Assembly: GCA_964446965.1 (NCBI GenBank)
Contig: CAYUQD010000001.1
Location: 21,586 to 85,585 of the forward strand
Direction: 5' to 3'
DNA: 64,000 bases
Source: an uncultured Candidatus Saccharibacteria bacterium
Lineage (GTDB): Bacteria; Patescibacteriota; Minisyncoccia; Phycocordibacterales; UBA9973
In this document: piece by piece, positions 2,853-47,284 of the stretch
Layout: the number at the start of each line of letters is the position of its first letter
How positions within the stretch are numbered: the first letter of the stretch is position 1
Notes under the pieces: generated by a model
Told to the model about the DNA's origin: nothing
Database searches by the model: none
The model's input: only the letters and a program-made list of their open reading frames with translations
Translations under genes and position numbers: made by a program

Positions 2853-4121
2853 GTGGACATGGAATCTTCCATTGCGCTCCAACTCTTCATTCGCCACTTT
2901 GGCGTTTTTGTTGCATTGATCTTTGTTGCGATTGTGGCATGGAACTTGTGGGTCACCTATATCAATACGTTGTATCTGAGGACTATTGAATGGGTCATAC
3001 TCGAAATCGTTCCTCCAAAAGAAGTATTCAAATCTCCCGAAGCAATGGAGCTAGTCTTGAACGTATTTAACGGAGGTGGTCCTGGCAACTGGTACGAAAA
3101 ATATTGGAAAGGAGAACTCGCTCAGTATTATGCGCTCGAGATAGTTTCAACTGAAGGTAAAATTCATTTTTATGTACGTTTTGCCAAGAAATTCAAAAAA
3201 GCTTTTGAGTCACAACTCTATGCGCAATATCCGCAAGCAGAAGTGAGTGAGGTGGCAGATTACTCCCAAAAGATCCCGGATTTTAGTACTGGAGCTATCA
3301 ATATCTTTGCCTACAATCTCAAACTCAAAAAAGAAGATCCATATCCAATCAAGACATATATCGACTTTGGGCTCGATAGAGCGATAGGTTCACTGGATGA
3401 AGAGCAGCGAATTGATCCGATAACACCCACATTGGAAACAATGGGATCTATTGGAGTAGGAGAACACATCTGGATGCAGATCAACTTTCGCCAGGCGATC
3501 AAACGACATGAAGTAAAAAAGGGAGATGTGGTAGAAAAAGAAAAAGGTTGGACTGACAAGAGTAAAGAAGTCATCACTGGGTTGAAGGCGGCCGCAAATA
3601 CTAAAGATGCTGAGGGCAAGACCATCCCTGGCAAACTAACAAAAGGTGAACAACAAGTCATCGAGGCAATAGAACGACATCGCAACAAGGCTGGTTTTGA
3701 TTGTGGAATGCGCGTGCTATATATTGCTGAGAAGGACAAGTTTAGTGGAAACACGATCTCTGCATTCACTGCGATGTTTCGTCAGTACAATACCGAAGAC
3801 ATGAACTCATTTAGTATGACTGATCTGACCAAAACTCCTGACGCTATGCCATGGAAGGATCCCTATGACCACAAAGTAAAGAAGATGAAAAAAGACTATC
3901 TCAGTGATTACAAGTCACGTTCATATTTCTACGGAGGGTTTGATTTTCACAAGATTACAAAATATTTTACAAACCCCGAAAAGTCTGGCAGTGATGGATT
4001 TGTGCTTTCGAGTGAAGAGCTCGCTACACTCTTTCACTTGCCAGGTCGTGTGGCAGAGACGCCGACATTTACTCGTATCGAATCCAAGAAGGGCGAACCA
4101 CCAGCAAATCTCCCAATATAA
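2853..4121 (+). CDS. hypothetical membrane protein (N-terminal TM, ~420 aa)
   Basis: Long ORF starting with GTG at 2853 (alternative ATG at 2859), N-terminal hydrophobic helix, no recognisable catalytic motif. Confidence 0.4.
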   Translation: MDMESSIALQLFIRHFGVFVALIFVAIVAWNLWVTYINTLYLRTIEWVILEIVPPKEVFKSPEAMELVLNVFNGGGPGNWYEKYWKGELAQYYALEIVSTEGKIHFYVRFAKKFKKAFESQLYAQYPQAEVSEVADYSQKIPDFSTGAINIFAYNLKLKKEDPYPIKTYIDFGLDRAIGSLDEEQRIDPITPTLETMGSIGVGEHIWMQINFRQAIKRHEVKKGDVVEKEKGWTDKSKEVITGLKAAANTKDAEGKTIPGKLTKGEQQVIEAIERHRNKAGFDCGMRVLYIAEKDKFSGNTISAFTAMFRQYNTEDMNSFSMTDLTKTPDAMPWKDPYDHKVKKMKKDYLSDYKSRSYFYGGFDFHKITKYFTNPEKSGSDGFVLSSEELATLFHLPGRVAETPTFTRIESKKGEPPANLPI

Positions 4122-9671: not shown

Positions 9672-11414
9672 ATGACATCTTCCGAAATCCGCAAGCGCTT
9701 TCTCGACTTTTTTGCTGCACGTGGCCATGCCGTACTGCCGTCGGCTTCACTTGTGCCCAAGAACGACCCTTCTGTACTATTCAACACTGCCGGTATGCAG
9801 CCGCTCGTGCCGTACCTCATGGGTGAGACACATCCACTCGGTACACGTCTCGCGAGCTGCCAGAAGTGTGTACGTACGGGAGATATCGAAGAAGTGGGCA
9901 ATCACAAAAATCTCACATTCTTTGAGATGCTCGGCAACTGGTCGCTCGGAGACTATTTCAAGGAGTATGCGATCAAGTGGAGCTACGAATTCCTCACGAG
10001 CAAAGATGAGGGACTCGGTCTCGATCCATCACGACTCTATGTGACCGTATTCGAAGGCGACGCAGATGCGCCACGCGATCTCGAAGCAGTCGAGATCTGG
10101 AAGCAATACATTCCCGAGCATCGCATCTATTTCCTCCCCAAGGCCAACAACTGGTGGAGTCCTGGCGACAATGGTCCATGTGGACCCGATACTGAGATGT
10201 TCTATGATGTGACCCCACACGGTCTCGGAGATATGACGCACGAGGAGTACGTGGCAGCAGATGACAAGGGCGAAGTCGTCGAGATCTGGAACGATGTGTT
10301 CATGGAGTATGAGAAGCGCGACGGCGCAGTGATAGGGAAGTTGTCTCAAAAAAATGTGGACACCGGATCAGGTCTCGAGCGTATCTCAATGATTGTGCAA
10401 GGCAAGAATAATGTCTATGAATCTGACTTCTTCTCAGAGGTAATGGAGTACATAAAAAATCATTCAACTAAAAATTACGATGAGCGCGCAGCGCGAATTG
10501 TCGCAGACCATATCAGAAGTTCATTATTTATGATTGGTGATGGTGTTTTACCTTCCAATAAAGATAGCGGTTATGTTGTTCGTCGATTAATTCGTCGTTC
10601 AATGATTCAATCAAATAAATTGGGTTTAAATAAGGAAGATATTACTGCAATATTGGGCATTTTTATTTCTATATATAGAACATCGTATGAAGAAGTTGGT
10701 AGTATTAACGTAGTCTCTTCGGTCTTGGATGAATTTGATAAATTTCAAAAAACTCTTGAGATTGGTCTCAAAGAGCTTGATAAGGGAACAGATCCGTTCT
10801 TATTGGCTACAAGTTATGGTTTTCCAATAGAGCTTACAGAAGAACTTTTAGGGGAAAAAGGTGGTAGTATCGATATGAAATTATTTGCTGAGCAAATGAA
10901 GTCTCACCAAGACGCATCTCGTGCTGGTGCTGAGCAGAAGTTCAAAGGTGGCCTTGCCAATACTTCTGAAATCACGACCAAGCTCCACACCGCACACCAT
11001 TTGCTATTGAAGGCGTTGCAAGAAGTCGTCAGTCCCGACATTCACCAAAAAGGTTCCAACATTACCGAAGAACGCCTCCGGCTCGACTTCAACTTTGACC
11101 GCAAGCTCACTGACGAAGAAAAGAAAGCTGTCGAAGATCTCGTCAATGAAAAGATTCGCGAAGATTTGATCGTCACCAAGCGCGAAATGCCCAAAGCAGA
11201 GGCAATGCAACTCGGTGCCGAGATGGAATTTGGGACGACGTATCCTGATATTGTGTCTGTCTATATGATTCATGACGCCAACGACAAGGTATTCTCCCAA
11301 GAATTTTGCGGAGGACCACACGTGTCACACACCGGCGTACTCGGTACGTTCAAGATTCAAAAAGAAGAAGCCTCATCAGCAGGTATTCGTCGGATCAAGG
11401 CAACACTGTCATAA
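9672..11414 (+). CDS. alaS: alanine--tRNA ligase, short form lacking the C-terminal C-Ala domain
   Basis: Class II catalytic core (FNTAGMQP, GNWS, WS..NGPCGP) and editing-domain motif CGGPHV; 580 aa versus the canonical ~870. Confidence 0.85.
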   Translation: MTSSEIRKRFLDFFAARGHAVLPSASLVPKNDPSVLFNTAGMQPLVPYLMGETHPLGTRLASCQKCVRTGDIEEVGNHKNLTFFEMLGNWSLGDYFKEYAIKWSYEFLTSKDEGLGLDPSRLYVTVFEGDADAPRDLEAVEIWKQYIPEHRIYFLPKANNWWSPGDNGPCGPDTEMFYDVTPHGLGDMTHEEYVAADDKGEVVEIWNDVFMEYEKRDGAVIGKLSQKNVDTGSGLERISMIVQGKNNVYESDFFSEVMEYIKNHSTKNYDERAARIVADHIRSSLFMIGDGVLPSNKDSGYVVRRLIRRSMIQSNKLGLNKEDITAILGIFISIYRTSYEEVGSINVVSSVLDEFDKFQKTLEIGLKELDKGTDPFLLATSYGFPIELTEELLGEKGGSIDMKLFAEQMKSHQDASRAGAEQKFKGGLANTSEITTKLHTAHHLLLKALQEVVSPDIHQKGSNITEERLRLDFNFDRKLTDEEKKAVEDLVNEKIREDLIVTKREMPKAEAMQLGAEMEFGTTYPDIVSVYMIHDANDKVFSQEFCGGPHVSHTGVLGTFKIQKEEASSAGIRRIKATLS

Positions 11415-11466: not shown

Positions 11467-12636
11467 ATGTCAAACAAAGGCCACCATGGTGTGATCGCAA
11501 TTTTTGATGTGAGCTCGAGCTCTGTAGCTGGGGCGCATGTATTGATGCAGTCACGCACATGTCCTGCCACTACGATACTCACTAGTGTTCGTAGTGATAC
11601 GCTCATTCGTGACGATATTGATGTCGAGCGATTTGTCACCGATACTAATGCCTTGCTCGGTACTATTGCGACGACTGTGCGCACACAGGATCTCCATCAT
11701 CCGACCATGGTGCAGATCATACTCGCGTCTCCATGGTATACAGCACAGACTCGTTCGGTAGTGTATCGCAAAGATACTCCATTTACCTGTACAAAGAAGC
11801 TCATCGACTCTCTGATCGAAGCCGAGATCAAGCATGTCCTCGCAAAAGAAGAAGGTCCCTTTGGTGCATTCGGCAACGAGTCAGTCATTGTCGAGCAACA
11901 ACTCTCGGGTATCAAGCTCAATGGCTACCACACACACGTACCCTATGGCAAAAAGGTGACCTCCCTCGAGTTCTCACTCATCGTCACCATCGCCCCCAAG
12001 CGTATTCTCGATATGTTTTCTGAGACACTCAAGCGCGCCTACGGCCTACGTACTATCAGATATACCACCAATACCTTCTCGACCTTTGTGGTGATGCGAG
12101 ATCGTGTACGACTCGATGATGCGTGTGTCGTCATCGACGTGGGCGAAGAGATCACCGATATTGCCTTTGTAAAGAACGGCATTGTACTCCAACAACATTC
12201 ATTTCCCCTCGGGACATTTGGACTCTATCGCGCCATTGGCAAACACGACGTCGACGTCCTGCACGAGTCTCACGCACTCCTCGAGGCGTATCGTCTGGGT
12301 AAATTGACGGCACCAGAGCGTCGCAAGGTAGAGAAGGCACTCACGAGCTTTAGTGACAAGTGGCAGGAAGGTTTCCGGCAGGTCATCGAAGAGGGGCACT
12401 ACGGCTTTTGTCTCCCACACCGTCTACTCGTCACGGTCGAAGCCCAATTTGAGCTCCTCTTTGCACGCATGATCGAAGAAGATCCGTTCATCAAGTACAA
12501 ATGTGCAGCTGACGCCATCATCCTCACCTATATCAACGAAGCCCTCCTTGCGCATGATGTCTCGACACAGGACCATAGCGCTATCGATAGCCCGCTCGCC
12601 GTAGGAGCATTATTTGCTGAGCGAGTGCAGTCATAA
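11467..12636 (+). CDS. actin-like ATPase of the FtsA/PilM family
   Basis: N-terminal phosphate-1-like IAIFDVSSSSVAGA, later VVIDVGEEITDIAFVKNG...LGTFGL; ASKHA-fold pattern. Confidence 0.45.
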   Translation: MSNKGHHGVIAIFDVSSSSVAGAHVLMQSRTCPATTILTSVRSDTLIRDDIDVERFVTDTNALLGTIATTVRTQDLHHPTMVQIILASPWYTAQTRSVVYRKDTPFTCTKKLIDSLIEAEIKHVLAKEEGPFGAFGNESVIVEQQLSGIKLNGYHTHVPYGKKVTSLEFSLIVTIAPKRILDMFSETLKRAYGLRTIRYTTNTFSTFVVMRDRVRLDDACVVIDVGEEITDIAFVKNGIVLQQHSFPLGTFGLYRAIGKHDVDVLHESHALLEAYRLGKLTAPERRKVEKALTSFSDKWQEGFRQVIEEGHYGFCLPHRLLVTVEAQFELLFARMIEEDPFIKYKCAADAIILTYINEALLAHDVSTQDHSAIDSPLAVGALFAERVQS

Positions 12637-12638
12637 CT

Positions 12639-13889
12639 ATGAAGCTCTACGACGTCATCCGCAAAGAAGAAATAGAAGAAGGTCGCACCTTTCCGCCGAT
12701 CAATATGGATCGAGAGCACTCCACGCCAAAGCCTCATCGACCTCGACATAGTGTCAGATGGCGGTCAATGCTCGTCATTGCATTGGCAGTAGTCTTTGTT
12801 GCCGTACTCTATATCGTTGGTATGAAGGTTGTGCATGCACGTGTCGTTATCAACGAACGTCGTATCCCGTTCTCGCTCGAAGGGGCTGAGTTTGAGCTCT
12901 CACACGAAGGAGAGGGAAGCGTGGGCAGGTTGTCATTCCAGACAATGGTTGTCCCAACGCAAGTATCACGACAAGTCTATGGATCAGTCGTCGAGCCCAG
13001 TACGAGCTCTGCGACTGGCAAGGTTGTATTCTTTAACGAATACAGCACCAAACCTCAGACCATCAAGGCAAAGACTGTCATTACTTCAAAAGAAGGCAAA
13101 AAATATCAGACCACTACGGCTGTTACTGTCCCGGGCTATACACTCAAAAACAAGGTAAAAACAGCGGGTACATCAGCATCTGTATCAGTAAAGGCGAGTG
13201 GGGTAGGTCCGACATACAACACTACAGGGACGAGCTTTACGGTGGCTGGGTATAGCAAGACACTCTACGCCCAATCAGCGGGCGCTATTAGTGGTGGAGA
13301 GGATGGTATTGTCCACCGTGTTGCCCCGAGCGAACAGGAGAGTATCAGAGCTACACTCCAAGCCCAGCTCATCGAACGTCTCAAACGTGAGACCCGTGCG
13401 CAGATGCCGCAAGGATTTATCACATTTCCCGACCTGCAGGTCACTACACTCAAGGGCGATGCTGTGTCATTCCAGGGTGATAGTATCAAGTTCGCCGCAA
13501 GTATGGATGGTGTCATGGTGACCTACCTGATCCCCATTGATCTCCTTGAGTCTACTATTGCAAACCATTTTCTTACTGATGACCATACCTACCCTCAGGT
13601 TACCATTCCTGACCTCGGAGGACTCACTGTCGTACCAGTCACTTCGCTCCCCGCAGACCCGTCTGTAGTACCCGACAGTATTCGTGTTCGTGTGTCTGGA
13701 GAGGGGACAATCATTGCCAAGGCTCCGCTCGACACCATCCGCCAGTCGCTCGTCGGCATCCCAAAGACTGCGTTTGCGACCACCCTTGCCACTGTCCCCG
13801 AGATCGATACCGCGGAGTATCATTTCACCCCATTTTGGGCACCATTTTTCCCCAGTCGCGAATCTCGGATCAAGGTAGAGGTACGGTAG
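12639..13889 (+). CDS. hypothetical single-pass membrane protein with a large extracytoplasmic domain
   Basis: Charged N-terminus, one TM (LVIALAVVFVAVLYIVG), ~350 aa Ser/Thr/Val-rich ectodomain; start codon 2 nt after the upstream stop. Confidence 0.4.
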   Translation: MKLYDVIRKEEIEEGRTFPPINMDREHSTPKPHRPRHSVRWRSMLVIALAVVFVAVLYIVGMKVVHARVVINERRIPFSLEGAEFELSHEGEGSVGRLSFQTMVVPTQVSRQVYGSVVEPSTSSATGKVVFFNEYSTKPQTIKAKTVITSKEGKKYQTTTAVTVPGYTLKNKVKTAGTSASVSVKASGVGPTYNTTGTSFTVAGYSKTLYAQSAGAISGGEDGIVHRVAPSEQESIRATLQAQLIERLKRETRAQMPQGFITFPDLQVTTLKGDAVSFQGDSIKFAASMDGVMVTYLIPIDLLESTIANHFLTDDHTYPQVTIPDLGGLTVVPVTSLPADPSVVPDSIRVRVSGEGTIIAKAPLDTIRQSLVGIPKTAFATTLATVPEIDTAEYHFTPFWAPFFPSRESRIKVEVR

Positions 13890-18366: not shown

Positions 18367-18924
18367 ATGAACGACGATGAAGATGTAGTGTTAGACCCAG
18401 AGTTCGTCGAGTCCACTGAGGATGGGGATGAGCTCGCTGGCAGTGCACAAATCAAGAAACTCCAAGAGAAAATCAAGTCTCTCGAGAAAGAAAAGACCGA
18501 GTACCTCGACGGCTGGCAGCGCGCTCGCGCCGACTATGCCAACCTCCAGAAGTCTACTGACGAAGACAAAAAACGGTTCAAGGAACTCTTTGCAGAGCGA
18601 TTTGTTGAGGACTTGATCCCAGTTGTCGACAGTTTCTCTATGGCGATGGGCAACAAGGAGGCGTGGGAGAAAGTAGAGCCGACATGGCGTACTGGGGTAG
18701 AGTATATCTACAACCAGCTTATGGCAGCTCTGCAGGGACACGGACTTACTCTCATAGGGGAGCCGGGTGAAGTATTTGATCCCACACTACACGAAGCTAT
18801 TAGTGAGCACGAGACAGATAATCCAGCCAATGACCATACAGTCATGTCAGTCATCCAAAAGGGGGTGAAACTCGCAGATACCGTGATACGGCCTGCTCGG
18901 GTGGTGGTATACAAGGCGGTCTAA
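18367..18924 (+). CDS. grpE: nucleotide exchange factor GrpE
   Basis: Acidic N-terminus, coiled coil, GrpE C-terminal beta domain (...H.A....D...V..V.Q.GY.L.D.V.RPA.V.V). Confidence 0.85.
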   Translation: MNDDEDVVLDPEFVESTEDGDELAGSAQIKKLQEKIKSLEKEKTEYLDGWQRARADYANLQKSTDEDKKRFKELFAERFVEDLIPVVDSFSMAMGNKEAWEKVEPTWRTGVEYIYNQLMAALQGHGLTLIGEPGEVFDPTLHEAISEHETDNPANDHTVMSVIQKGVKLADTVIRPARVVVYKAV

Positions 18925-19035: not shown

Positions 19036-19536
19036 ATGAAAAAGGTATTTCAGTTAATTCTGATTGTAGGGTTATTTGCCCTCACCAGCTGTGGCAAAGA
19101 TTATGTGCCAACAATTGTAGATCCAACCCTGCCTGTGGCAGATGGTATCTCGGTGGTGGCGACACTTAGTCGCCCCAGCTCATTTTTTGATGGCAATACG
19201 GCGAACTATGATATACAAATTAATGCAGGATACAATTTCGGATCATCAAATCTGTATATTGATCACATTACACGACGTCAATCAAACGGATTTGCACCTG
19301 TTCGGGAAACATACCCTTTGTATTTAACCATTTTTCCGAAGCCGGGCGGTATTACTATCCGCAATATAAAACTTGGTGAAATATACCAAATAGTATTGCA
19401 GGACGTATATGGCAACTGGCAAGTTATCTTTGCCCAAGAATGGTGTGACTGTCAGGGTAGAAAAGCTGACAAACCCACAGTCAATAAATTCATTACTGAA
19501 AGTAATGCACATCGAAAAAAGGCAATCAAGAATTGA
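19036..19536 (+). CDS. hypothetical lipoprotein
   Basis: Signal peptide with lipobox LTSC. Confidence 0.5.
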   Translation: MKKVFQLILIVGLFALTSCGKDYVPTIVDPTLPVADGISVVATLSRPSSFFDGNTANYDIQINAGYNFGSSNLYIDHITRRQSNGFAPVRETYPLYLTIFPKPGGITIRNIKLGEIYQIVLQDVYGNWQVIFAQEWCDCQGRKADKPTVNKFITESNAHRKKAIKN

Positions 19537-19551
19537 TATGCAACAAAGTAG

Positions 19552-19581
19552 AAACCCGGTATATTTTACCGGGTTTTTTTA
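19552..19581. terminator. bidirectional terminator (aaacccggtat-atttt-accgggttt + T-run)
   Basis: Inverted repeat between converging genes. Confidence 0.55.
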
Positions 19582-20118
19582 TTGAACCATGTTTACAAAT
19601 TCCTTCTCGGTCTCTATATCAAGTGCGTCAGTTACGAGTATCATAACTTCGGTTTTCAAACCGAGGTCTTTTTTTATGTTTGCAAAGAGGTGTTCAAAGG
19701 GGAGCTTTGAGATCCAGACACTATTTTTTGCGGCGACGAACCCCGCTTTTTTGAGCAGGTAGCGGAGCGCATCTCGCTCTGTCTTGCGATCCTCGGGGAA
19801 GTCGAGCATGATGATGCGCCATTTGCCATCCCAGTGCGGGTTGAATACGACGTCTTCGTGATCGAGTTTGATGCTATGCGCCTTGCGTTTACCCTCTGCT
19901 GTGAGGCGAGCATAGGCTTGCTGACCCGAATGGTGATGCTCGACGAGGCCAGTGTCCCGCAAGCCTTTGAGAGAGCGTGTGAGTGCGTACAGAGCCTTGG
20001 GCGCGTCGGTATCGCCGAGTTGTTCAGTCAGGGTCGCAACAGAGATTGCGGGCTTGTCAGCGAGGAGTTTGATGATTTTCTTTGAATAATTGGCCTTGTC
20101 GCCAGTATTTCTTGACAT
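19579..20118 (-). CDS. winged-helix transcriptional regulator, PaaX-like (N-terminal wHTH plus C-terminal PaaX_C/Cas2-like domain)
   Basis: ...LYALTRSLKGLRDTGLVEH... wHTH; C-terminal WDGKWRIIMLDFPEDRKTERDALRYLLKKAGF...NSVWI. Confidence 0.45.
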   Translation of the reverse strand: MSRNTGDKANYSKKIIKLLADKPAISVATLTEQLGDTDAPKALYALTRSLKGLRDTGLVEHHHSGQQAYARLTAEGKRKAHSIKLDHEDVVFNPHWDGKWRIIMLDFPEDRKTERDALRYLLKKAGFVAAKNSVWISKLPFEHLFANIKKDLGLKTEVMILVTDALDIETEKEFVNMVQ

Positions 20119-20140
20119 AGAAAAACGATATCATTATACT
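20112..20140 (+). promoter_or_regulatory. dnaK promoter TTGACA-17-TATACT
   Basis: The -35 box overlaps the start codon of the divergent regulator gene; the minus-strand TATAAT (20133-20138) overlaps the -10 box. Confidence 0.45.
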
Positions 20141-20145
20141 GCTAT

Positions 20146-20172
20146 TTGTACAAGTATTTTGCGGTCGCAAAA
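20146..20172. promoter_or_regulatory. palindromic operator candidates TTGTACAA (20146-20153) and TTTTGCG-gt-CGCAAAA (20157-20172) on the dnaK leader
   Basis: Perfect inverted repeats located between the dnaK transcription start and the divergent regulator. Confidence 0.35.
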
Positions 20173-20233
20173 CAGACGTTAAATCCCGAATTCACGACCA
20201 AATACTTTTAGTAATTAATTTTTTCACACACAT

Positions 20234-22138
20234 ATGGCAAAAATCATTGGAATTGACCTCGGAACGACCAACAGTGCTGTCGCCATCATCGAAGGTGGCC
20301 AGCCAAAGATTATCGAGAATATCGAAGGTGCACGCACCACTCCGTCCATTGTCGCAGTGGGCAAGAACGGCGACCGTCTCGTCGGTCTCCTTGCGAAACG
20401 TCAGGCCGTCACCAACCCAGAGAACACGATCTATGGTATCAAGCGCTTCATGGGTCACAAGGCAGATGACACTGGTCTCGACAAAGTGATCAAGACCTCA
20501 TCGTTCAAGGTCGCACATGGCACAGACGGTGGTGTACAAGTCAAACTTGGGGACAAGGACTACCGTCCTGAAGAAATCTCTGCGATGATCCTACAGAAGA
20601 TCAAGGCAGACGTCGAAGCAAAGCTCGGTGAAAAGGTCACCGAGGCGATCATCACCGTCCCTGCGTATTTTAACGATGCACAGCGCAAGGCCACCAAGGA
20701 CGCAGGAGCGATCGCCGGTCTCGATGTGAAGCGTATCATCAACGAACCAACTGCAGCTGCGCTCGCGTACGGATTTAATTCTAAGAAAAACGAAAAGATC
20801 GCCGTGTACGACCTCGGTGGAGGAACATTCGATATCTCTATCCTCGAAGTCTCTGATATCGATGACCAGCAGTCTATCGAAGTGAAGTCGACCGATGGTG
20901 ATGCCCTCATGGGAGGACGCGACATCGACCTCAAGATCATGGACTGGATCGCCGAAGAATTCAAAAAGCAGTCAGGTGTGGATGTCATGAAGGACTCCCT
21001 CGCTCGACAGCGACTCGACGAAGCTGCAGAGAAGGCAAAGATCGAACTCTCGACAGCGGTCGAGACAGAGATCAACATCCCATTCATCACAAGTACTGAT
21101 GCGGGTCCTCAGCACTTGCTCCTCAAGATGACTCGTGCACAGCTCGAGAGTATCGCGGACGAGTACATTGCGCGCTCTATCGACATCACCAAGCGTGCAG
21201 TCGAAGCATCTGGATTCTCTATGGCAGATATCAATGAAGTCATCCTCGTCGGAGGACAGACTCGCATGCCAAAGATTGTGGAGGAAGTGAAGAAACTCTT
21301 TGGTAAAGAACCAAACCGTTCTATCAACCCTGACGAAGTCGTCGCTCTCGGTGCGGCAGTGCAAGGAGGAGTATTGCAAGGTGATGTGCGCGACGTGTTG
21401 CTCCTCGATGTTATTCCGCTCTCTCTCGGTATCGAGACCATGGGAGGTGTCGCGACCAAGCTCGTCGAACGCAATACGACGATCCCGAGCTCAAAGAGTC
21501 AGATCTTCTCAACCGCGACTGACAACCAGCCGTCAGTAGAGATACATGTCACTCAAGGAGAGCGCCCAATGGCTGCTGACAACAAATCGCTCGGACGATT
21601 TGTCCTCGATGGCATTGCACCAGCACCACGTGGTATGCCACAGATCGAGGTGACATTCGATGTGGACTCCAACGGTATCCTCAGTGTGAAAGCCAAGGAC
21701 AAAGCTACTGGCAAGGAGCAGTCTATCCGCATCGAAGCGTCATCAGGTCTCACCCCCGAAGACATCGAACGCATGAAGAAAGATGCCGAGATCAATGCCG
21801 GCGAAGACGCAAAGAAAAAGGAGCTCGTCGATGCAAAGAACACTGCAGACATGATGATCTTCTCAGCCGAGAAAGCACTCACCGAACACGGTGCCAATAT
21901 CACTGATGAGATCAAGGCAGGGGTACAGGCAAAGATTGACGAAGCAAAGAAAGCAAAGGAAGGGAATGACAAGGCTGCAATGGAAGCTGCGACCAGTGCA
22001 CTCTCTACAGAGATGCAAAAGATAGGGGAACATATCCAAAAGAACTCCTCTACTACTCCAGAGCCTCAGGCCGAAGAAATCACCAAGGATGCTGAGGCGA
22101 CTGATACCACTAGTGAGCCAGAAGCTCCAAAAGCATAA
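20234..22138 (+). CDS. dnaK: molecular chaperone DnaK (Hsp70)
   Basis: [18 protein letters not shown], full-length Hsp70. Confidence 0.95.
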
Positions 22139-22165: not shown

Positions 22166-22188
22166 TGCCCTAGAAATAGGGTTTTTTG
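22166..22188 (+). terminator. intrinsic terminator after dnaK (ccctagaaataggg + T6)
   Basis: Hairpin plus T-run. Confidence 0.5.
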
Positions 22189-22265: not shown

Positions 22266-22823
22266 ATGTTAATCGAATTAGCTGCTCTCAAATATTTACT
22301 TTCTGGTGGAACCTCAGATGAGGAACTATCTTCTTCTGATTCCAAAATAGAAATACCGTCAGCAACCCGTAGATCCGATGCATTCAGTATATTTTTTCTG
22401 ACCACATCGGTACCAGCTATTATTGGTTTGATATTTTCAAACTATACTGCGCTGGAATCAATAGGATGCTTTATGAATTGGCTTATGCGCCAGACTGTCG
22501 GTGCTGTAACTGAATACAGGTCACGCACTGATTTGACAGATTTTGGCACAGTTGTCATACCTGTTCTATTTGTTATCTGGTGGGTAATGATATTCGGTAC
22601 CATAGTAGTTATCAGCAGATACTTTGCCGCACTGATAACAGAAATGGGTAAAATGATTCCTAAAGGAATTAAAAACTTTATTCTTGTCATCACTATCTCT
22701 ATTTCTATAAGTTGTATATATTATGGTTACAACCAATACCACCAAAAGAGATCAGTATTTGAAAAAGAAGAAAAGAGAGAAAAAGAAAGAGCGTCATATC
22801 GTCATTCGCGTTACTATTTTTAG
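22266..22823 (+). CDS. hypothetical polytopic membrane protein
   Basis: Three to four hydrophobic helices, KE-rich C-terminus. Confidence 0.4.
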   Translation: MLIELAALKYLLSGGTSDEELSSSDSKIEIPSATRRSDAFSIFFLTTSVPAIIGLIFSNYTALESIGCFMNWLMRQTVGAVTEYRSRTDLTDFGTVVIPVLFVIWWVMIFGTIVVISRYFAALITEMGKMIPKGIKNFILVITISISISCIYYGYNQYHQKRSVFEKEEKREKERASYRHSRYYF

Positions 22824-23007: not shown

Positions 23008-23038
23008 AACCGCCCTTATGAGGGCGGTTTGACTTTTT
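23008..23038 (+). terminator. intrinsic terminator (accgccct-tatg-agggcggt + T-run), fused to the next promoter
   Basis: 8-bp stem; TTGACT at 23028-23033 begins the promoter TTGACT-17-TATAAT for the 23073 gene. Confidence 0.55.
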
Positions 23039-23072
23039 ATATGTAGTATGTATAATTTATGAAAAATTAAGT

Positions 23073-23456
23073 ATGAAACATTTAAAGTTGTATCAATTCC
23101 TGCGGATTGCAGTGTTTGTTGTTTGTAGTACTGGCGCACTCTTCAGTATTTATTGGGGATGGTCCAATAATAACTTCGTAAGCTTTATTTGGGTATTTGC
23201 AGTGTCCGTAATTACACTTTCTTTTTCCTATGTATATATTCCTGGAAAAATATATACATATCGAGAATTTGAACGAGCAACAAACGCCGCTTCTTGGAAA
23301 TATGCAGTCCATGCAAAATGGAAATTCAAATCCGGATATCTGCATGAAATGAATACTGGACTCAATGAAAAAATGTACCTTGTGTACGATGAGAGAGATC
23401 TAGGTAAAGTCTTAAAAGAAAAAACTCCCGCAGAGCTTGAAGCGTATAATAAATAG
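23073..23456 (+). CDS. hypothetical membrane protein
   Basis: Two N-terminal TM helices. Confidence 0.4.
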   Translation: MKHLKLYQFLRIAVFVVCSTGALFSIYWGWSNNNFVSFIWVFAVSVITLSFSYVYIPGKIYTYREFERATNAASWKYAVHAKWKFKSGYLHEMNTGLNEKMYLVYDERDLGKVLKEKTPAELEAYNK

Positions 23457-23526: not shown

Positions 23527-24588
23527 ATGAGCAAAGACTATTACGAGACATTGGGTGTCCAAAAAGGCGCCTCAAAGGATGAGATCAAAAAGGCCTTCCA
23601 TAAGATGGCGCATAAATACCATCCTGATAAATCCACTGGCGACGAAGCCAAGTTCAAGGAGGTCAATGAAGCGTACCAGACACTCTCGGACGATCAGAAG
23701 CGTGCGCAGTACGACCAGTTTGGGTCTGCGGGACCACAGATGGGTGGCGGACAAGGATTCGGAGGATTCGACTTTGGTGGATTCGGGCAGAATGCGGGCG
23801 GATTTGAATTCGATCTCGGAGATATGTTTGGCGACTTATTTGGCGGCGGCAGACAACGACGGCAGCAACGGGGAAACGATCTACAGACTACAATCAACAT
23901 CGAGTTCAAGGACGCGATATTTGGCATTGAGCGTGAACTTCGGATCAAGAAGCCGTCGGTCTGTACAACGTGCAAAGGCAACGGCGCAAAGCCTGGCACC
24001 GATCTCCATACCTGTAGTCAATGTAACGGCAAGGGGCAGGTGCGCAACATTCAGCGCACAATCCTCGGGTCTATCGCAACCAATCAGACCTGCGACAAGT
24101 GTCATGGTGCAGGCAAGATACCAACAGAGCCATGTGCCACCTGTCATGGCAAGGGTGTCGTCAACGAAGAACGCACTATCAAAATCTCGGTCCCTGCCGG
24201 TATCCAGAATGGCGAGACCCTCCGCCTCGCAGGTATGGGTGAAGCGATCACTGGTGGGAGCCCTGGGGATCTCTATGTACATGTCACGGTAGCTACACAC
24301 AAGACTATCGTCCGACACAATCACGATCTCGTGACTACACTCCCGATCAAACTCACCGACGCACTCCTCGGCGCGACCTACGCAGTCGAGACACTCGATG
24401 GTACTGAGCAAATCTCTATACCTACCGGTACGAGAGTAGGAGATACGATCACGCTCAAGCACAAAGGTGTCCCTGTCAGTACCTCAAAGCGTGGTAACTT
24501 CATTATCAAACTCGATATCAAACTCCCCGAGAAGCTTTCAAAGAAGGCAAAGGAAGTGATAGAGGAGCTCAAGAAAGAGGGAATATAG
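23527..24588 (+). CDS. dnaJ: molecular chaperone DnaJ
   Basis: J domain with HPD, G/F-rich linker, four CxxCxGxG zinc-finger repeats, C-terminal domain. Confidence 0.9.
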   Translation: MSKDYYETLGVQKGASKDEIKKAFHKMAHKYHPDKSTGDEAKFKEVNEAYQTLSDDQKRAQYDQFGSAGPQMGGGQGFGGFDFGGFGQNAGGFEFDLGDMFGDLFGGGRQRRQQRGNDLQTTINIEFKDAIFGIERELRIKKPSVCTTCKGNGAKPGTDLHTCSQCNGKGQVRNIQRTILGSIATNQTCDKCHGAGKIPTEPCATCHGKGVVNEERTIKISVPAGIQNGETLRLAGMGEAITGGSPGDLYVHVTVATHKTIVRHNHDLVTTLPIKLTDALLGATYAVETLDGTEQISIPTGTRVGDTITLKHKGVPVSTSKRGNFIIKLDIKLPEKLSKKAKEVIEELKKEGI

Positions 24589-25455: not shown

Positions 25456-26919
25456 ATGGCATCCATACCCGAACTGCGAGACGAACGACTGAAAAAGAAG
25501 GCTATGCTTGAGGAGAAAGGCATTAATCCCTATCCTGCCACTACCAAGCGTACCGATGCTATCGATGTATTCAAAGATCGCTTTTCGTTGTACGAAGCAG
25601 GTAAGGACGCGATCACACTCGCAGGACGCATCATGAGCAAACGTGGACAAGGTGGGCTCGCATTCGCAGACATATTTGACGGTTCTGCAGGAGGAACGAT
25701 GCAGCTGTTCCTCAAATCTGATGAAATGGATGCAGATGCATATGCGCTCTGGAACGAAACGACTGACGTCGGCGACTTCGTCGAGGCGACAGGTATTGCG
25801 TATACGACCAAGCGTGGAGAGCAAGCACTCTTTGTGAGTGGATGGAACATGCTCGCCAAGTCTCTCCTCCCATTGCCTGAAAAGTGGCATGGTCTCACTG
25901 ATGATGACGAACGATACCGCAAGCGATATCTCGATATCCTCACCAACCCTGAACTCCGTGCAATGTTCGAACAGAAGGCAAAGTTCTGGGAAGTGACGCG
26001 CAACTTCATGAAAGACGCAGGGTTCATGGAGGTAGAGACTCCAACCCTCGAGGTGACGACAGGGGGAGCCGAAGCCAATCCGTTCAAAACCATGCACAAG
26101 GACTTTGCGATGGATGTATTCATGCGTATATCGGTCGGAGAACTCTGGCAAAAGCGCCTGATGGCTGCCGGATTTCCCAAGACATTTGAGATAGGGCGTG
26201 TGTACCGCAACGAAGGAAGTAGTCCCGATCACCTCCAAGAATTTACCAACATGGAGTTCTATTGGGCATATGCTGACTATGAAATGGGGATGAAGCTCGT
26301 CGAGCAGTTGTACAAAAAGATCGCACTCGAAGTCTTTGGGACGACAACATTCACGACACGTGGACACACCTTTGATCTCAACCAGCCATGGGGTCGTATC
26401 GACTATGTCAATGAGATCGAGAAGCAAACAGGTATCAATGTCCTCGATGCAACAGAAGGCGAGATGACGGCAAAGCTCGATGAACTCGGCGTGAAGTATG
26501 TCGGCACCAACAAAGAGCGCCTCACTGATACCCTCTGGAAATACTGCCGCAAATCTATCGCAGGTCCAGCATTTCTCATTCGCGTGCCCAAGCTCGTCTC
26601 TCCATTGGCAAAAGCTGCGTCAGACGATCCTCGAGTCACTGAGCGATTTCAAGTATTGCTCGCAGGGAGTGAGGTAGGGAACGGATTTAGTGAACTCAAT
26701 GATCCTGTGGATCAGCGTGCACGCTTTGACCTCCAGCAAGCCATGATCGAGCGCGGAGATGACGAAGCGATGATGCCTGAATGGGAGTTCGTCGACATGC
26801 TCGAGCATGGGATGCCGCCGACCTGCGGATTTGGATTTGGTGAGCGACTATTCGCATTCCTCGTCGACAAACCATTGCGCGAGACGCAATTGTTCCCGTT
26901 GTTGAAGCCGAGAGAGTAA
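25456..26919 (+). CDS. lysS: lysine--tRNA ligase (class II)
   Basis: Class II motifs FMEVETP, YRNEG, GLGIDR-like C-terminus (GFGFGERL). Confidence 0.9.
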   Translation: MASIPELRDERLKKKAMLEEKGINPYPATTKRTDAIDVFKDRFSLYEAGKDAITLAGRIMSKRGQGGLAFADIFDGSAGGTMQLFLKSDEMDADAYALWNETTDVGDFVEATGIAYTTKRGEQALFVSGWNMLAKSLLPLPEKWHGLTDDDERYRKRYLDILTNPELRAMFEQKAKFWEVTRNFMKDAGFMEVETPTLEVTTGGAEANPFKTMHKDFAMDVFMRISVGELWQKRLMAAGFPKTFEIGRVYRNEGSSPDHLQEFTNMEFYWAYADYEMGMKLVEQLYKKIALEVFGTTTFTTRGHTFDLNQPWGRIDYVNEIEKQTGINVLDATEGEMTAKLDELGVKYVGTNKERLTDTLWKYCRKSIAGPAFLIRVPKLVSPLAKAASDDPRVTERFQVLLAGSEVGNGFSELNDPVDQRARFDLQQAMIERGDDEAMMPEWEFVDMLEHGMPPTCGFGFGERLFAFLVDKPLRETQLFPLLKPRE

Positions 26920-42629: not shown

Positions 42630-43721
42630 ATGAAAAAAATGCTAAAGGCCTTTAACAAGCTTGTATTTTTGCACCATAAAACTGCCACTCAAGTGTATGA
42701 TATCGCGACTTTGGCTCAAGCTATTGAACAAAGCGCTCTAGATGCATTTGCGACATATGCAAAAGGTGTAAAACCATCCGGTAATTTTGTTAGGATTGAC
42801 CGTAAAGATAAAATGCAAGACGTGCTTGGTATAATCTATTCTGTAGATTATTTCGTGAGAAAAGGTGTAGGCTTTACCCCCAAATTAATGCTCCTTCAAA
42901 ACAGAGTTATGGGAGCAAATTGTTTCGGACATGCAATCATTCTTGGATCATTGTTACGACACGAACGCAATGGATACAAAGTATACCTTGGGATTACTCC
43001 AGATCATGCATCCGTCATACTAGAGTCCAATAATGAACTCTACGTATGTTTGAGTAATGATTTTGCTCGCCTAAAAAAGATGCACGGTACTCTTGTAGAG
43101 CATGAGGGGTACAGATGGTACACATGTTCAGAAAAAGATGATTTTAATTTTACACATATTGCTATCCAGGACTTTGAAAAGGGAGTCATAAACGCAATGG
43201 TTGAGAGCTTCATCTTTTTACAGGAGAATTCAAAGAAGCGTATGCAGGATGAATATATAGATGAGCATGCATTTAATGACCCTGGTTTTAAGATACGAAC
43301 AAGGGTGCATACTACCAATTGGAAGTATTTTCAAAAAAAGTATTTAGCTGAACTTAATGGGTACAGGACAAGATATGAAAAAGAATACCTCCTTGATTGC
43401 CTCAGAACAGAGCATCGCCGTGCTTATCAAAGGATGCGTAATAAGTTTGATAAGATTATTGCCGGAGCATTCCAAAATGCACTACCGATGCGGTATACAC
43501 CTGATTTAAACAAAAAGTTTATACAGGCATATGTTCCACTACTTCAAACAGTACGAGCAAAACTTAATGTATTCTTGGAAAACGGCGAATACATGATATC
43601 CTTACCAAAACGTCTCGAACGCTATCTCAAATCCATTAAATATGGGATTGAAAAAGATCCTAGTATTAAGGAATTTGTTATAGAAAGATTTGATCAATTG
43701 CTTTCATCACAAAGAGCGTAG
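42630..43721 (+). CDS. hypothetical protein with transglutaminase-like Cys-His-Asp core (putative cysteine protease fold)
   Basis: ANCFGHAIILGSLLRHERNGYKVYLG...PDHASVILESNNELYVCLSND spacing fits a TGase-like C...H...D triad. Confidence 0.35.
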   Translation: MKKMLKAFNKLVFLHHKTATQVYDIATLAQAIEQSALDAFATYAKGVKPSGNFVRIDRKDKMQDVLGIIYSVDYFVRKGVGFTPKLMLLQNRVMGANCFGHAIILGSLLRHERNGYKVYLGITPDHASVILESNNELYVCLSNDFARLKKMHGTLVEHEGYRWYTCSEKDDFNFTHIAIQDFEKGVINAMVESFIFLQENSKKRMQDEYIDEHAFNDPGFKIRTRVHTTNWKYFQKKYLAELNGYRTRYEKEYLLDCLRTEHRRAYQRMRNKFDKIIAGAFQNALPMRYTPDLNKKFIQAYVPLLQTVRAKLNVFLENGEYMISLPKRLERYLKSIKYGIEKDPSIKEFVIERFDQLLSSQRA

Positions 43722-45446: not shown

Positions 45447-45857
45447 ATGAAAAAGAACTATTTTCATGATCAATCAGATCATTGTGGTGTAGATGTGATT
45501 GTTACCAATAACACCAACATCACTACAACAGCGAACTCTCACAATGAGCCTTATTCACCTATTAATGCTCAACTACCTTCTGACTGTGGTAGTTATGGTC
45601 ATGCAGGTAATACTGCCACCCAGTCAATAACAATCTCTGCTGGGGATAATGCTACTAAAACTCCTACAACAAGTTCTGTAGCTACATTTCAGACGTTAAC
45701 CTATGGAGCACCTCAGAACGATGATGCCCCTTCTGGTAAGGAGCAGAAACTGGAGCGAGATTGGCCATTTATTTTGAGAGAAGTGTGGGGATTTCCGGTT
45801 ACCAAAGCAATCTTGCTTATAGCAGTGATAATCATAGCTCTGCGGTTATTCTTTTAA
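45447..45857 (+). CDS. hypothetical tail-anchored protein (C-terminal TM)
   Basis: Ser/Thr/Asn-rich N-terminus, C-terminal AILLIAVIIIALRLFF. Confidence 0.35.
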   Translation: MKKNYFHDQSDHCGVDVIVTNNTNITTTANSHNEPYSPINAQLPSDCGSYGHAGNTATQSITISAGDNATKTPTTSSVATFQTLTYGAPQNDDAPSGKEQKLERDWPFILREVWGFPVTKAILLIAVIIIALRLFF

Positions 45858-45934
45858 ACAAATGGGTTCGTATAAAGCACGGGATCAACTCCTGGGCTTT
45901 TTTTATTGCCCGATATATGGCACAATGCAAACCT

Positions 45935-47284
45935 ATGAGCAGCACTATGGAACGAACCTATATTGGAGACTTGGGGGGCAAGGCAGGCGAGACAGTACTC
46001 ATCAAGGGGTGGATAGACGTCCGTCGCGACCAGGGCAAAATGGTCTTTTTTGACTTCAGAGATATGACGGGCACGATCCAAGGTGTCGTCCTTCCAATGC
46101 GTCCAGACGTCATTGAGATCGCAAAGACATGTCGCCCAGAGACCGTTGTCGCAATCCAAGGTATCGTGAACAAGCGCCCAGAACGTAACATCCAAGCCGA
46201 CAAGCAAAATGGTGATATCGAACTTGAAGTGACAAATATCGATATACTTAGTCCGGCCCAAGATCTACCGTTTGACTTTAACGCTGAACCAAACCTTGAT
46301 ACATTACTTGATTACCGACCATACACACTACGCATGCCACGCGAGCGGGCAATATTTAAAGTCCAGCATAATATCCTCAAAGCCTTTCGAGAGTACCTCA
46401 CGAGTGAGAAGTTTACTGAATTCAGAGCACCTGCTATTACAGGAGGAGATGCAGAGGGCGGTACTGAAGTATTTAAGTTCGATTATTTCTATGGAAAAAT
46501 GGGGTATCTTGCAACAAGTCCGCAACTATACAAGCAAATGATGGTTGGTGTATTCGAGCGTGTATTTACGATTGCAAACGTCTTTCGTGCCGAAAAGCAT
46601 GCAACTGCTCGCCACTTGAACGAATATACGTCTCTCGACCTAGAAATGGGGTTTATCGACGGACCAGAAGATGTTATGAAGCTTGAAACAAGACTTTTGC
46701 GCTATATTTCTGAACACCTTCAAAAAACATGCGCGAAGGAATTTGAAGTTCTTGGTGCAACATTCCCACTTATCCCAGATAGCGATATGTTCCCAAGTAT
46801 GAAGCTCGCAGACGCGCAAGCGCTCATCACCAAAGAAACTGGCGTGGACTGCACACAGGAACCAGATCTTGATCCAGAACATGAACGCTGGCTCTGTGAG
46901 TATGCAAAGAAGGAACTGGGGTCTGATTTCATTTTCATTACGAACTACCCTCGGACAAAGCGGCCATTCTATGCAATGGATGATGAAAATAATGAGGGAC
47001 GAACTAAGTGTTACGATCTTTTATTCCGCGGTCTTGAACTCATATCAGGTAACCAGCGAGAACATCGTTACGAAAAACTCGTCGAAAAGATGAAATGGAA
47101 AGGTCTTGATCCTGAAAAGTTTTCATTCTATCTTCAAGCGTTCAAATATGGTCTTCCGCCACATGGTGGACTCGGTATGGGGCTCGAACGTCTTACTGCA
47201 CGATTTTTGGGTCTCTCAAACATTAAAGAGGCTACACTTTTCCCGCGCGATATCAACCGTATTGATAAATTACTCTCTGAGTAA
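45935..47284 (+). CDS. aspS: aspartate--tRNA ligase, archaeal/eukaryotic type (type 2); AsnRS not excluded
   Basis: OB-fold N-terminus, motif 2 FRAEKHATARHLNEYTSLDLEMGF, motif 3 PPHGGLGMGLERL; ~450 aa; start chosen downstream of the GCTTTTTTTATTGCCC element. Confidence 0.65.
   Translation: MSSTMERTYIGDLGGKAGETVLIKGWIDVRRDQGKMVFFDFRDMTGTIQGVVLPMRPDVIEIAKTCRPETVVAIQGIVNKRPERNIQADKQNGDIELEVTNIDILSPAQDLPFDFNAEPNLDTLLDYRPYTLRMPRERAIFKVQHNILKAFREYLTSEKFTEFRAPAITGGDAEGGTEVFKFDYFYGKMGYLATSPQLYKQMMVGVFERVFTIANVFRAEKHATARHLNEYTSLDLEMGFIDGPEDVMKLETRLLRYISEHLQKTCAKEFEVLGATFPLIPDSDMFPSMKLADAQALITKETGVDCTQEPDLDPEHERWLCEYAKKELGSDFIFITNYPRTKRPFYAMDDENNEGRTKCYDLLFRGLELISGNQREHRYEKLVEKMKWKGLDPEKFSFYLQAFKYGLPPHGGLGMGLERLTARFLGLSNIKEATLFPRDINRIDKLLSE

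Follow-up and report, generated by a model that had tools for sequence, protein, structure and literature searches.

A truncated PaaX-like protein encoded divergently from dnaK as a predicted dnaK repressor in Patescibacteria

In the 64,000-nucleotide stretch of DNA from an uncultured Candidatus Saccharibacteria bacterium analysed here (contig CAYUQD010000001.1; hereafter the window, in whose positions all coordinates are given unless another locus is named), the chaperone gene dnaK (Hsp70; 20234-22138, plus strand) is faced by a divergent gene for a protein of 179 amino acids (19579-20118, minus strand, ATG start), and the 115-bp spacer between the two genes holds a 30-bp inverted repeat (20150-20179). 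Comparison with related loci makes it highly probable that this protein is an autoregulated, dedicated repressor of dnaK which binds the repeat as its predicted operator. A broader proposal, that truncated PaaX proteins of this kind are the principal dnaK regulators of a class of Patescibacteria and related lineages, where they would take the place of HrcA or HspR and sense proteotoxic stress directly, is advanced more tentatively, at somewhat less than even confidence. Autoregulated repressors that act on a chaperone operon through a palindromic operator are a known arrangement; what is new here is the protein family, together with its operator and its lineage.

Operator and promoters in the regulator-dnaK spacer

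The original prediction, made from the letters of the window, had described a 179-residue regulator divergent from dnaK, with overlapping promoters and a palindrome on the dnaK leader. The positions of the open reading frames (ORFs) and their translations confirm the pair of genes, and the sequence agrees with the promoter overlap. The dnaK promoter P1 (20112-20140, plus strand) consists of TTGACA (20112-20117) and TATACT (20135-20140) separated by a 17-nt spacer, matches the consensus at 11 of 12 positions and is the only sigma-70-like promoter match within 19400-20400. Its -35 box is overlapped by the start codon of the regulator (CAT on the plus strand, 20116-20118), and its -10 box is interleaved on the opposite strand with a putative -10 box of the regulator, TATAAT (ATTATA on the plus strand, 20133-20138), which we infer to belong to the promoter of that gene; TATAGT or TATAAT stands at the same position in window-type loci. 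A transcript from this promoter would have a leader of about 7 nt without a Shine-Dalgarno sequence.

The palindrome TTTTGCG-GT-CGCAAAA (20157-20172) was also correctly described: it is perfect and unique in the window. Alignment of spacers on this core gives a 30-bp family consensus, ACAAGTATTTCGCG-RY-CGCGAAATACTTGT, of which the window site, ACAAGTATTTTGCG-GT-CGCAAAACAGACGT (20150-20179), has a perfect left arm and core and a degenerate right outer arm. The operator starts about 10 nt past the -10 box of P1 and covers roughly +1 to +30 of the dnaK transcript. Scored with a symmetrised position weight matrix (PWM) derived from 64 sites, on which the true sites range from 28 to 44 bits, it reaches 30.2 bits, and a scan of the 64-kb window at a cut-off of 12 bits returned nothing else. 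In the matrix, ACA at -15 to -13 is kept in 64, 63 and 64 of the 64 sites respectively, G(-2), C(+2), A(+7), A(+8) and G(+14) in all 64, and T(-8) and T(-7) in 63-64, with positions +/-3 to +/-5 variable. The neighbouring TTGTACAA (20146-20153), which the original prediction had listed beside the palindrome, is present as described; as a second operator or an element of its own it was rejected, with only its ACAA, the start of the left operator arm, being kept and the TTGT part varying between species.

The degenerate right outer arm appears to be compensated by a displaced copy. A right outer half-site, AAATACTT (20200-20207, plus strand), lies 20 nt past the operator and, judging from related sequences, stands in for the missing arm: of the 49 loci whose right outer arm is degenerate, 29 have the same half-site within 100 nt downstream at no more than one mismatch, whereas shuffling predicts about 9 and the reverse-complement control gave 9. 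The offsets cluster at 1-4, 11-13, 20-22 and 31 nt and, being spaced about 10 bp apart, correspond to whole helical turns.

Conservation across related loci

By itself, a 7+2+7 palindrome in 115 bp of spacer would be no more than a mildly improbable chance event, and the decisive evidence for this one is its conservation, with one site in the same placement in 78 of 80 related loci. These loci come from a synteny survey of one genome per species, in which the regulator is 52-74% identical to the window protein. In 76 of the 80, dnaK lies upstream of the regulator gene on the opposite strand, at less than 450 bp in 65 loci and at 0.5-2.3 kb, with small inserted ORFs, in 10; the four loci without dnaK are explained by a contig end or an insertion. 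The gene grpE lies downstream of and convergent with the regulator gene, again in 76 of 80. Across the loci compared, the order grpE, regulator (opposite strand), dnaK and then usually dnaJ is a fixed feature of the lineage.

The 78 loci each carry exactly one operator, scoring 25-44 bits and placed just past the -10 box of dnaK, and in the two loci without one the contig ends at or just upstream of the regulator gene. The PWM scan of these loci, 604 kb in all, found no second site of at least 16 bits. A promoter of the form TTGACA-16/17/18-TATAMT precedes the operator in most loci, with a gap of 9-10 nt between the two, or of 5-6 nt in one sub-group, and in window-type loci the ATG of the regulator overlaps the -35 box of this promoter in the motif TTGACAT. 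Many loci (L024, L034-L038, L041, L050, L052, L053 and L062 are examples) have a second promoter, TTGTCA-16/17-TATAAT, which uses the right operator arm as its -35 box. The distance from the operator centre to the ATG of the regulator is usually 46 nt, so that the -35 region of any regulator promoter must overlap the left arm. Comparison of the loci thus demonstrates the linkage of regulator gene, operator and dnaK and the geometry of the operator relative to the promoters. The geometry of an autoregulated repressor controlling its neighbour, proposed from the window, is strongly backed by this agreement of synteny, operator and promoters between species.

Several species have small hypothetical ORFs between the operator and dnaK, on the dnaK strand, which would be co-regulated with dnaK (L005, 3582-3932; L009, 3587-3928; L063, 888-1247; L053, 3605-3871; L075, 3623-3892; L046, 1934-3377). 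Two types recur in unrelated loci, one of 88-89 amino acids (MxDPxKxDFxQLPKKF...) and one of 113-119 (...AKxLARLTxLKxNIP...). Two others were seen once each, an ORF of 116 amino acids in L005 and one of 183 in L046, the latter isochorismatase-like by eye.

A site in DNA or a hairpin in RNA

Transcription from P1 puts the palindrome at the extreme 5' end of the dnaK mRNA, where it could act as RNA, as a terminal hairpin serving as a stability element or thermometer, with the regulator incidental or RNA-binding. CIRCE, the operator of HrcA, acts at the mRNA level as well. Some inner-arm changes are symmetric (5 loci have A-T in place of G-C at position +/-4, for instance), and the window fold allows pairing between the outer left arm and AAATACTT further downstream. 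However, neither strand is kept pairable across arm mismatches. In 86 operators analysed for such mismatches, these are transitions and are G.U-type about equally on both strands without consistent bias, the counts for the dnaK strand versus the opposite strand being 6 versus 25 at position 3, 12 versus 5 at position 5, 9 versus 10 at position 6, 22 versus 6 at position 11 and 3 versus 14 at position 12. In a hairpin the central two bases would be a 2-nt loop, but 81 of 86 operators have a conserved purine-pyrimidine step there (GT in 42, AC in 34, AT in 5). GT and AC are the same step read from opposite strands, and because the step is kept in either orientation the conserved centre fits a symmetric protein reading DNA shape, not a hairpin loop.

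Other observations point the same way. In the many species whose second promoter has its -35 box in the right arm, transcripts from that promoter would lack the hairpin, and the half-site offsets near multiples of 10 bp matter for faces of the DNA helix, not for RNA pairing. Folding of the 5' untranslated region of dnaK in the window was no better than that of shuffled sequences (z = 0.17), and no Rfam family scored above threshold. Moreover, the hairpin would lie 50-200 nt from the start codon and cannot mask the ribosome-binding site. An RNA role is accordingly rated as very unlikely; comparison shows the element to behave as double-stranded DNA, and the evidence favours its being bound by a protein in that form.

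A minimal PaaX protein

The candidate for this protein is the product of the adjacent gene. In Pfam searches, residues 94-174 match PaaX_M (PF20803), the central Cas2-like domain of PaaX, with E = 4.1e-20 and 72 bits against a cut-off of 24 bits, and the N-terminus gives weak winged-helix matches only. The C-terminal helical, inducer-binding domain, PaaX_C, has no Pfam match in the regulator even at E <= 1, and the chain stops at residue 179, directly past PaaX_M. The winged helix-turn-helix (wHTH) and Cas2-like domain of the original prediction were therefore rightly recognised, the latter being PaaX_M, and its PaaX_C is absent. HrcA and MerR domains were not matched in the regulator by Pfam, nor was HrcA by NCBIfam, and the score against the NCBIfam PaaX equivalog TIGR02277, 37.1 bits, is far below the cut-off of 264.55 bits.

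An AlphaFold model based on an alignment of 24 homologues (predicted local distance difference test, pLDDT, 79; predicted template modelling score, pTM, 0.65) has three helices and a beta-hairpin wing at residues 11-72 (H-H-H-beta-beta), followed by a linker helix and, at residues 100-178, a beta-alpha-beta-beta-alpha-beta-alpha domain. A Foldseek comparison of the model with the PDB ranked E. coli PaaX (8a39) highest, ahead of the PaaX-like 3l09 and Rv0674 (3kfw), with Cas2 chains matching the C-terminal half and MarR/ArsR proteins the N-terminal half. The link to PaaX needed this comparison of folds because a PDB sequence search with the regulator gave marginal winged-helix matches only, for example to eS10 and HxlR. 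On domain matches and modelled fold, the regulator is a minimal PaaX, with the DNA-binding winged helix and the Cas2-like middle domain and without the ligand-binding C-terminal domain.

PaaX itself is an autoregulated repressor with the site TGATTC-N27-GAATCA, in which the middle region is the dimerisation motif and the C-terminus the phenylacetyl-CoA-binding part (PMC9493321). This kinship allows the regulator to be read as an ordinary metabolic PaaX, responsive to acyl-CoA and near dnaK by chance, a reading favoured by the JGI label of homologues ('PaaX / phenylacetic acid degradation operon negative regulatory protein') and by PaaX being the best fold match. It is nevertheless hardly credible, given the 37 bits against the TIGR02277 cut-off of 264.55 bits, the absence from the regulator of the domain that binds phenylacetyl-CoA in PaaX (PMC9493321), an operator that differs from TGATTC-N27-GAATCA and the lack of any match to paa (phenylacetate-catabolism) families among the Pfam-scanned window ORFs.

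A homology search with the regulator returned 904 proteins, of which the best 120 are 58-100% identical to it and 168-203 amino acids long, with Paceibacterota, Nomurabacteria and 'Patescibacteria group' as named sources among those 120; annotations among the homologues are hypothetical, MarR or 'PaaX'. An alignment of 24 family members has 52 invariant columns, among them R48, S49, G52 and L53, which lie in what is presumed to be the recognition helix, and W96, D97, W100, R101, L105, D106 and E109 at the start of the Cas2-like domain. In an exhaustive profile search of 1.84 billion representatives of clusters at 50% identity, the number of matching clusters rose from 20 at E <= 1e-30 to 1,097 at E <= 1e-10 and to 3,692 at E <= 1e-3, and the best 150 are mostly proteins of about 180-200 amino acids. 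By these searches the orthologues of the regulator form a tight group within a broad superfamily of short proteins with a wHTH and PaaX_M. Identities of 55-74%, compared with 67-91% for DnaK, make the regulator unusual among transcription factors in its degree of conservation.

A large number of the nearest genomes carry the label 'uncultured Candidatus Saccharibacteria bacterium'. Their regulator and DnaK group with Paceibacterota or Nomurabacteria, and the labels look like automated misassignments.

A probable local regulator of dnaK

The original prediction had named failure of the palindrome to recur at other heat-shock genes as a result that would speak against a heat-shock repressor. No recurrence was seen at grpE or dnaJ, either in the window or in related loci, or elsewhere in the 64-kb window and the 604 kb of loci, which by that criterion counts against a global role. 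When the left-arm pattern was used to scan metagenome sequences, 120 stretches were obtained and rescored with the full PWM; the 9 stretches scoring at least 31 bits are all beside dnaK. The only other metagenome match of at least 25 bits (L109, 25 bits) lies inside a peptidase S41 coding region and was dismissed as chance. Because the operator recurs nowhere else in the window, in the loci or among the strong metagenome sites, the regulator looks like a local, dedicated regulator of the dnaK operon rather than a global heat-shock regulator.

On one metagenome contig (L156, 1330-2010) grpE and dnaK, in this order and on one strand, come after an operator of 31 bits, so that grpE would also be under the operator in that organism.

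The claim that no hrcA, CIRCE or HAIR element is visible holds for the window, where the Pfam scan of ORFs and the motif scans were negative. CIRCE (TTAGCACTC-N9-GAGTGCTAA, up to 3 mismatches) had no match in the 668 kb made up of the window and the 80 loci. In the same sequences HAIR was absent from the dnaK region, with isolated single matches at 2 mismatches in L030 and L031 only, and the CtsR box (a tandem heptad) gave two weak one-mismatch matches, neither at a dnaK promoter. The HrcA domain (PF01628) was not found among the Pfam-scanned window ORFs, which include every non-overlapped ORF of at least 250 amino acids, and tblastn with a B. subtilis HrcA query had no match in the window or the 80 loci. 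Substitution of the regulator for HrcA is a hypothesis.

Distant relatives and the age of the dnaK link

Nine distant superfamily members, 27-31% identical to the window protein over their full length and 31-37% over the part aligned by tblastn, extend the comparison beyond the orthologues. Four of the nine are divergent from chaperone genes: P0148 faces grpE, P0140 faces grpE-PBP-dnaK-dnaJ, and P0143 and P0153 each face grpE-dnaK. The spacers of these chaperone-facing relatives hold related palindromes which keep ACAAGT...ACTTGT-like outer arms, namely ACAAGTTTTAAGCG-GT-CGCGTAAAGTTTGT in L203, ACAAGTATTTCA-CTATAT-TGAAATTGTTGT in L208 and ACAAGTTTTCTGTG-GA-TACAAAATACTTGT in L211. As far as these loci go, the link to the DnaK system survives gene rearrangement in a sizeable sub-branch and is not a property of the whole superfamily.

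Another of the nine, P0157, lies away from chaperone genes and has TTCCGTG-GT-CGCGGTAAAATAGG just upstream of its own gene (L209, 680-720). The resemblance of this core to the dnaK operator is a hint that autoregulation by way of such a core predates the association with dnaK.

These loci also bear on the alternative that the palindrome is the site of some other factor, the PaaX-like protein regulating something else and the adjacency being an accident of conserved gene order. In its favour, recognition helix and operator show no clear covariation. Against it, in four of the loci where extra genes have pushed dnaK about 0.9-1.4 kb off (L057, L061, L068 and L073), the site is still roughly 30-90 nt upstream of the regulator gene, and a related palindrome appears again in the shared spacer where the regulator faces grpE and not dnaK. 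With one site per locus and none elsewhere, another factor is a very improbable owner of the site, and the adjacent regulator is the preferred one.

Proposed mechanism

The regulator would form a dimer through its Cas2-like domain, as may be supposed by analogy with dimerisation of PaaX through PaaX_M, and would bind the 30-bp operator in this form. The bound dimer would block RNA polymerase at P1 and, in many relatives, also at the second dnaK promoter, whose -35 box is inside the right arm. It would likewise block the divergent promoter of its own gene, the -35 region of which lies over the left arm. Repression of both promoters is suggested by the operator occupying the positions of an occluding repressor, and the sign of regulation and the autoregulation both follow from this placement. 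The predicted outcome is an autoregulated switch dedicated to the dnaK operon.

Binding of the operator by the regulator might also serve activation of dnaK, or a dual role, as divergent regulator-target pairs include activators of the LysR and MerR types. However, the site is downstream of the -10 box of a near-consensus promoter (11/12) and over the -35 box of the second promoter, positions which are typical of steric repression, and promoters of such strength need no activator. PaaX itself is a repressor (PMC9493321). An activating or dual role is thus considered very unlikely, and repression is retained in the model.

As to the signal, DNA binding could be lost when the regulator unfolds (intrinsic thermolability) or when free DnaK, on which its activity would depend, is titrated by misfolded proteins. 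HspR with DnaK, HrcA with GroEL, and RheA are precedents for loss of DNA binding on unfolding or chaperone titration. These two possibilities are favoured because the regulator has no ligand domain and is unusually conserved; they are the preferred guess, held with rather less than even confidence.

Several points weigh against the proposal of a dedicated dnaK repressor. The whole case rests on sequence comparison. Confidence in the AlphaFold model is only moderate, and the TM-scores of the full-length fold search are low (0.36-0.40). Residues of the recognition helix show no clean covariation with the variable inner operator bases; mutual information between those bases and the protein columns peaks in a poorly conserved loop (33-38) and at residues 54 and 68 without a clean rule. 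The regulator promoter of the window has a good -10 box and no recognisable -35 box, for which reason autoregulation is deduced there from the overlap only. Five of the nine distant members (P0135, P0157, P0163, P0200 and P0250) are in other or uninformative contexts, not beside chaperone genes. Finally, the absence of the operator from grpE, dnaJ and every other gene sampled leaves a general heat-shock role unsupported.

Relation to known chaperone-gene repressors

HrcA/CIRCE is the class I heat-shock repressor system of Firmicutes and many other bacteria. It resembles the present system in a repressor that is tied to the grpE-dnaK-dnaJ cluster, autoregulated and without a small-molecule ligand, and in an inverted-repeat operator that lies past the -10 box and ahead of the start codon of the chaperone operon. 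In contrast, HrcA belongs to an unrelated family (PF01628) which was not detected here, and CIRCE is a 9-N9-9 repeat, whereas the present operator is a continuous 30-bp palindrome of other sequence. Moreover, hrcA is the first gene of its operon and is co-transcribed with it, whereas the present regulator gene is divergent, and HrcA also controls groESL, whereas the present operator is seen only at dnaK.

HspR, the MerR-type repressor of the dnaK operon in Streptomyces, Mycobacterium and Helicobacter, is likewise mainly a regulator of that operon, autoregulated and with an inverted-repeat operator (HAIR) at the dnaK promoter; feedback by DnaK would be a further likeness if the favoured signal model is right. 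It differs in its MerR fold, in being encoded by the last gene of dnaK-grpE-dnaJ-hspR and in the sequence of HAIR, CTTGAGT-N7-ACTCAAG. RheA, the hsp18 repressor of Streptomyces albus, binds inverted repeats in a shared spacer, represses both genes and senses temperature without a ligand. The present regulator is similarly small, divergent from a single heat-shock gene and predicted to repress both genes through inverted repeats in the shared spacer; RheA, however, is of another protein family, has a small Hsp and not DnaK as its target and is narrowly distributed. PaaX shares the homologous wHTH and Cas2-like middle domain and is an autoregulated repressor with a long inverted-repeat operator (PMC9493321), but has other targets, another operator and the roughly 100-residue C-terminal helical inducer-binding domain which the present regulator is without. 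In the literature no description was found of a PaaX-like dnaK regulator, nor of heat-shock regulation in these lineages.

Patescibacteria (the Candidate Phyla Radiation) are a large share of bacterial diversity whose gene regulation is almost uncharted. Here one protein, one 30-bp site and one target gene can be named, conserved over about 80 species, and the prediction is testable with synthetic DNA and recombinant protein, without culturing. If it is true, the few known kinds of chaperone-gene repressor would be joined by a new protein family. On the broader proposal the regulator would represent a fifth, structurally unrelated class beside HrcA, HspR, CtsR and RheA, and no regulator-operator pair would have been assigned earlier in these uncultured genomes of reduced size. 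A function would also be found for a widespread architecture, the 3,692 clusters that match the family profile at E <= 0.001, whose members currently carry labels such as 'hypothetical', 'MarR family' or the misleading 'phenylacetic acid degradation repressor PaaX'. The regulator would then be an example of a ligand-gated repressor scaffold reduced to its DNA-binding and dimerisation core and reused for stress control.

Neighbouring genes and other features of the window

Downstream of the regulator gene, grpE (18367-18924, plus strand; Pfam GrpE, E = 8e-41) is convergent with it and has no operator upstream. A small lipoprotein-like ORF between the two (19036-19536) is also convergent with the regulator gene, and a hairpin at 19552-19576, between the end of that ORF (19536) and the end of the regulator gene (19579), is likely to be a bidirectional terminator. 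On the other side, dnaK, an ORF whose product is 67-91% identical to DnaK of the related loci, is followed directly by a terminator-like hairpin with a T-run (22167-22182, plus strand). It is separated from dnaJ (23527-24588, plus strand; no operator of its own) by two small ORFs, 22266-22823 (185 amino acids) and 23073-23456 (127 amino acids), both membrane-protein-like by eye and without a significant Pfam match. Both have promoter-like and terminator-like sites, for example a hairpin at 23008-23029 and a promoter at 23029-23056, and on account of these intervening ORFs with sites of their own the dnaK-dnaJ pair is taken to be split in this genome. The hairpin behind dnaK and the separate promoter-like sites before the next ORFs suggest that dnaK is transcribed alone, and it is probably the sole structural gene under the operator here.

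Further from the locus, four large ORFs of 363-422 amino acids (2853-4121, 11467-12636, 12639-13889 and 42630-43721) have no Pfam match at E <= 1e-5. A protein of 343 amino acids (1217-2248) combines an N-terminal sigma-70 region 4 with a HARE-HTH domain, a non-standard layout for a sigma factor. The alanyl-tRNA synthetase (9672-11414) is only 580 amino acids long, with the catalytic domain and the second additional domain; bacterial enzymes are usually much longer, at roughly 870 amino acids. Two class II aminoacyl-tRNA synthetase genes of the Asp/Lys/Asn type with OB anticodon-binding domains (25456-26919 and 45761-47284) lie less than 20 kb apart and are probably those of AspRS/AsnRS and LysRS, in either order.

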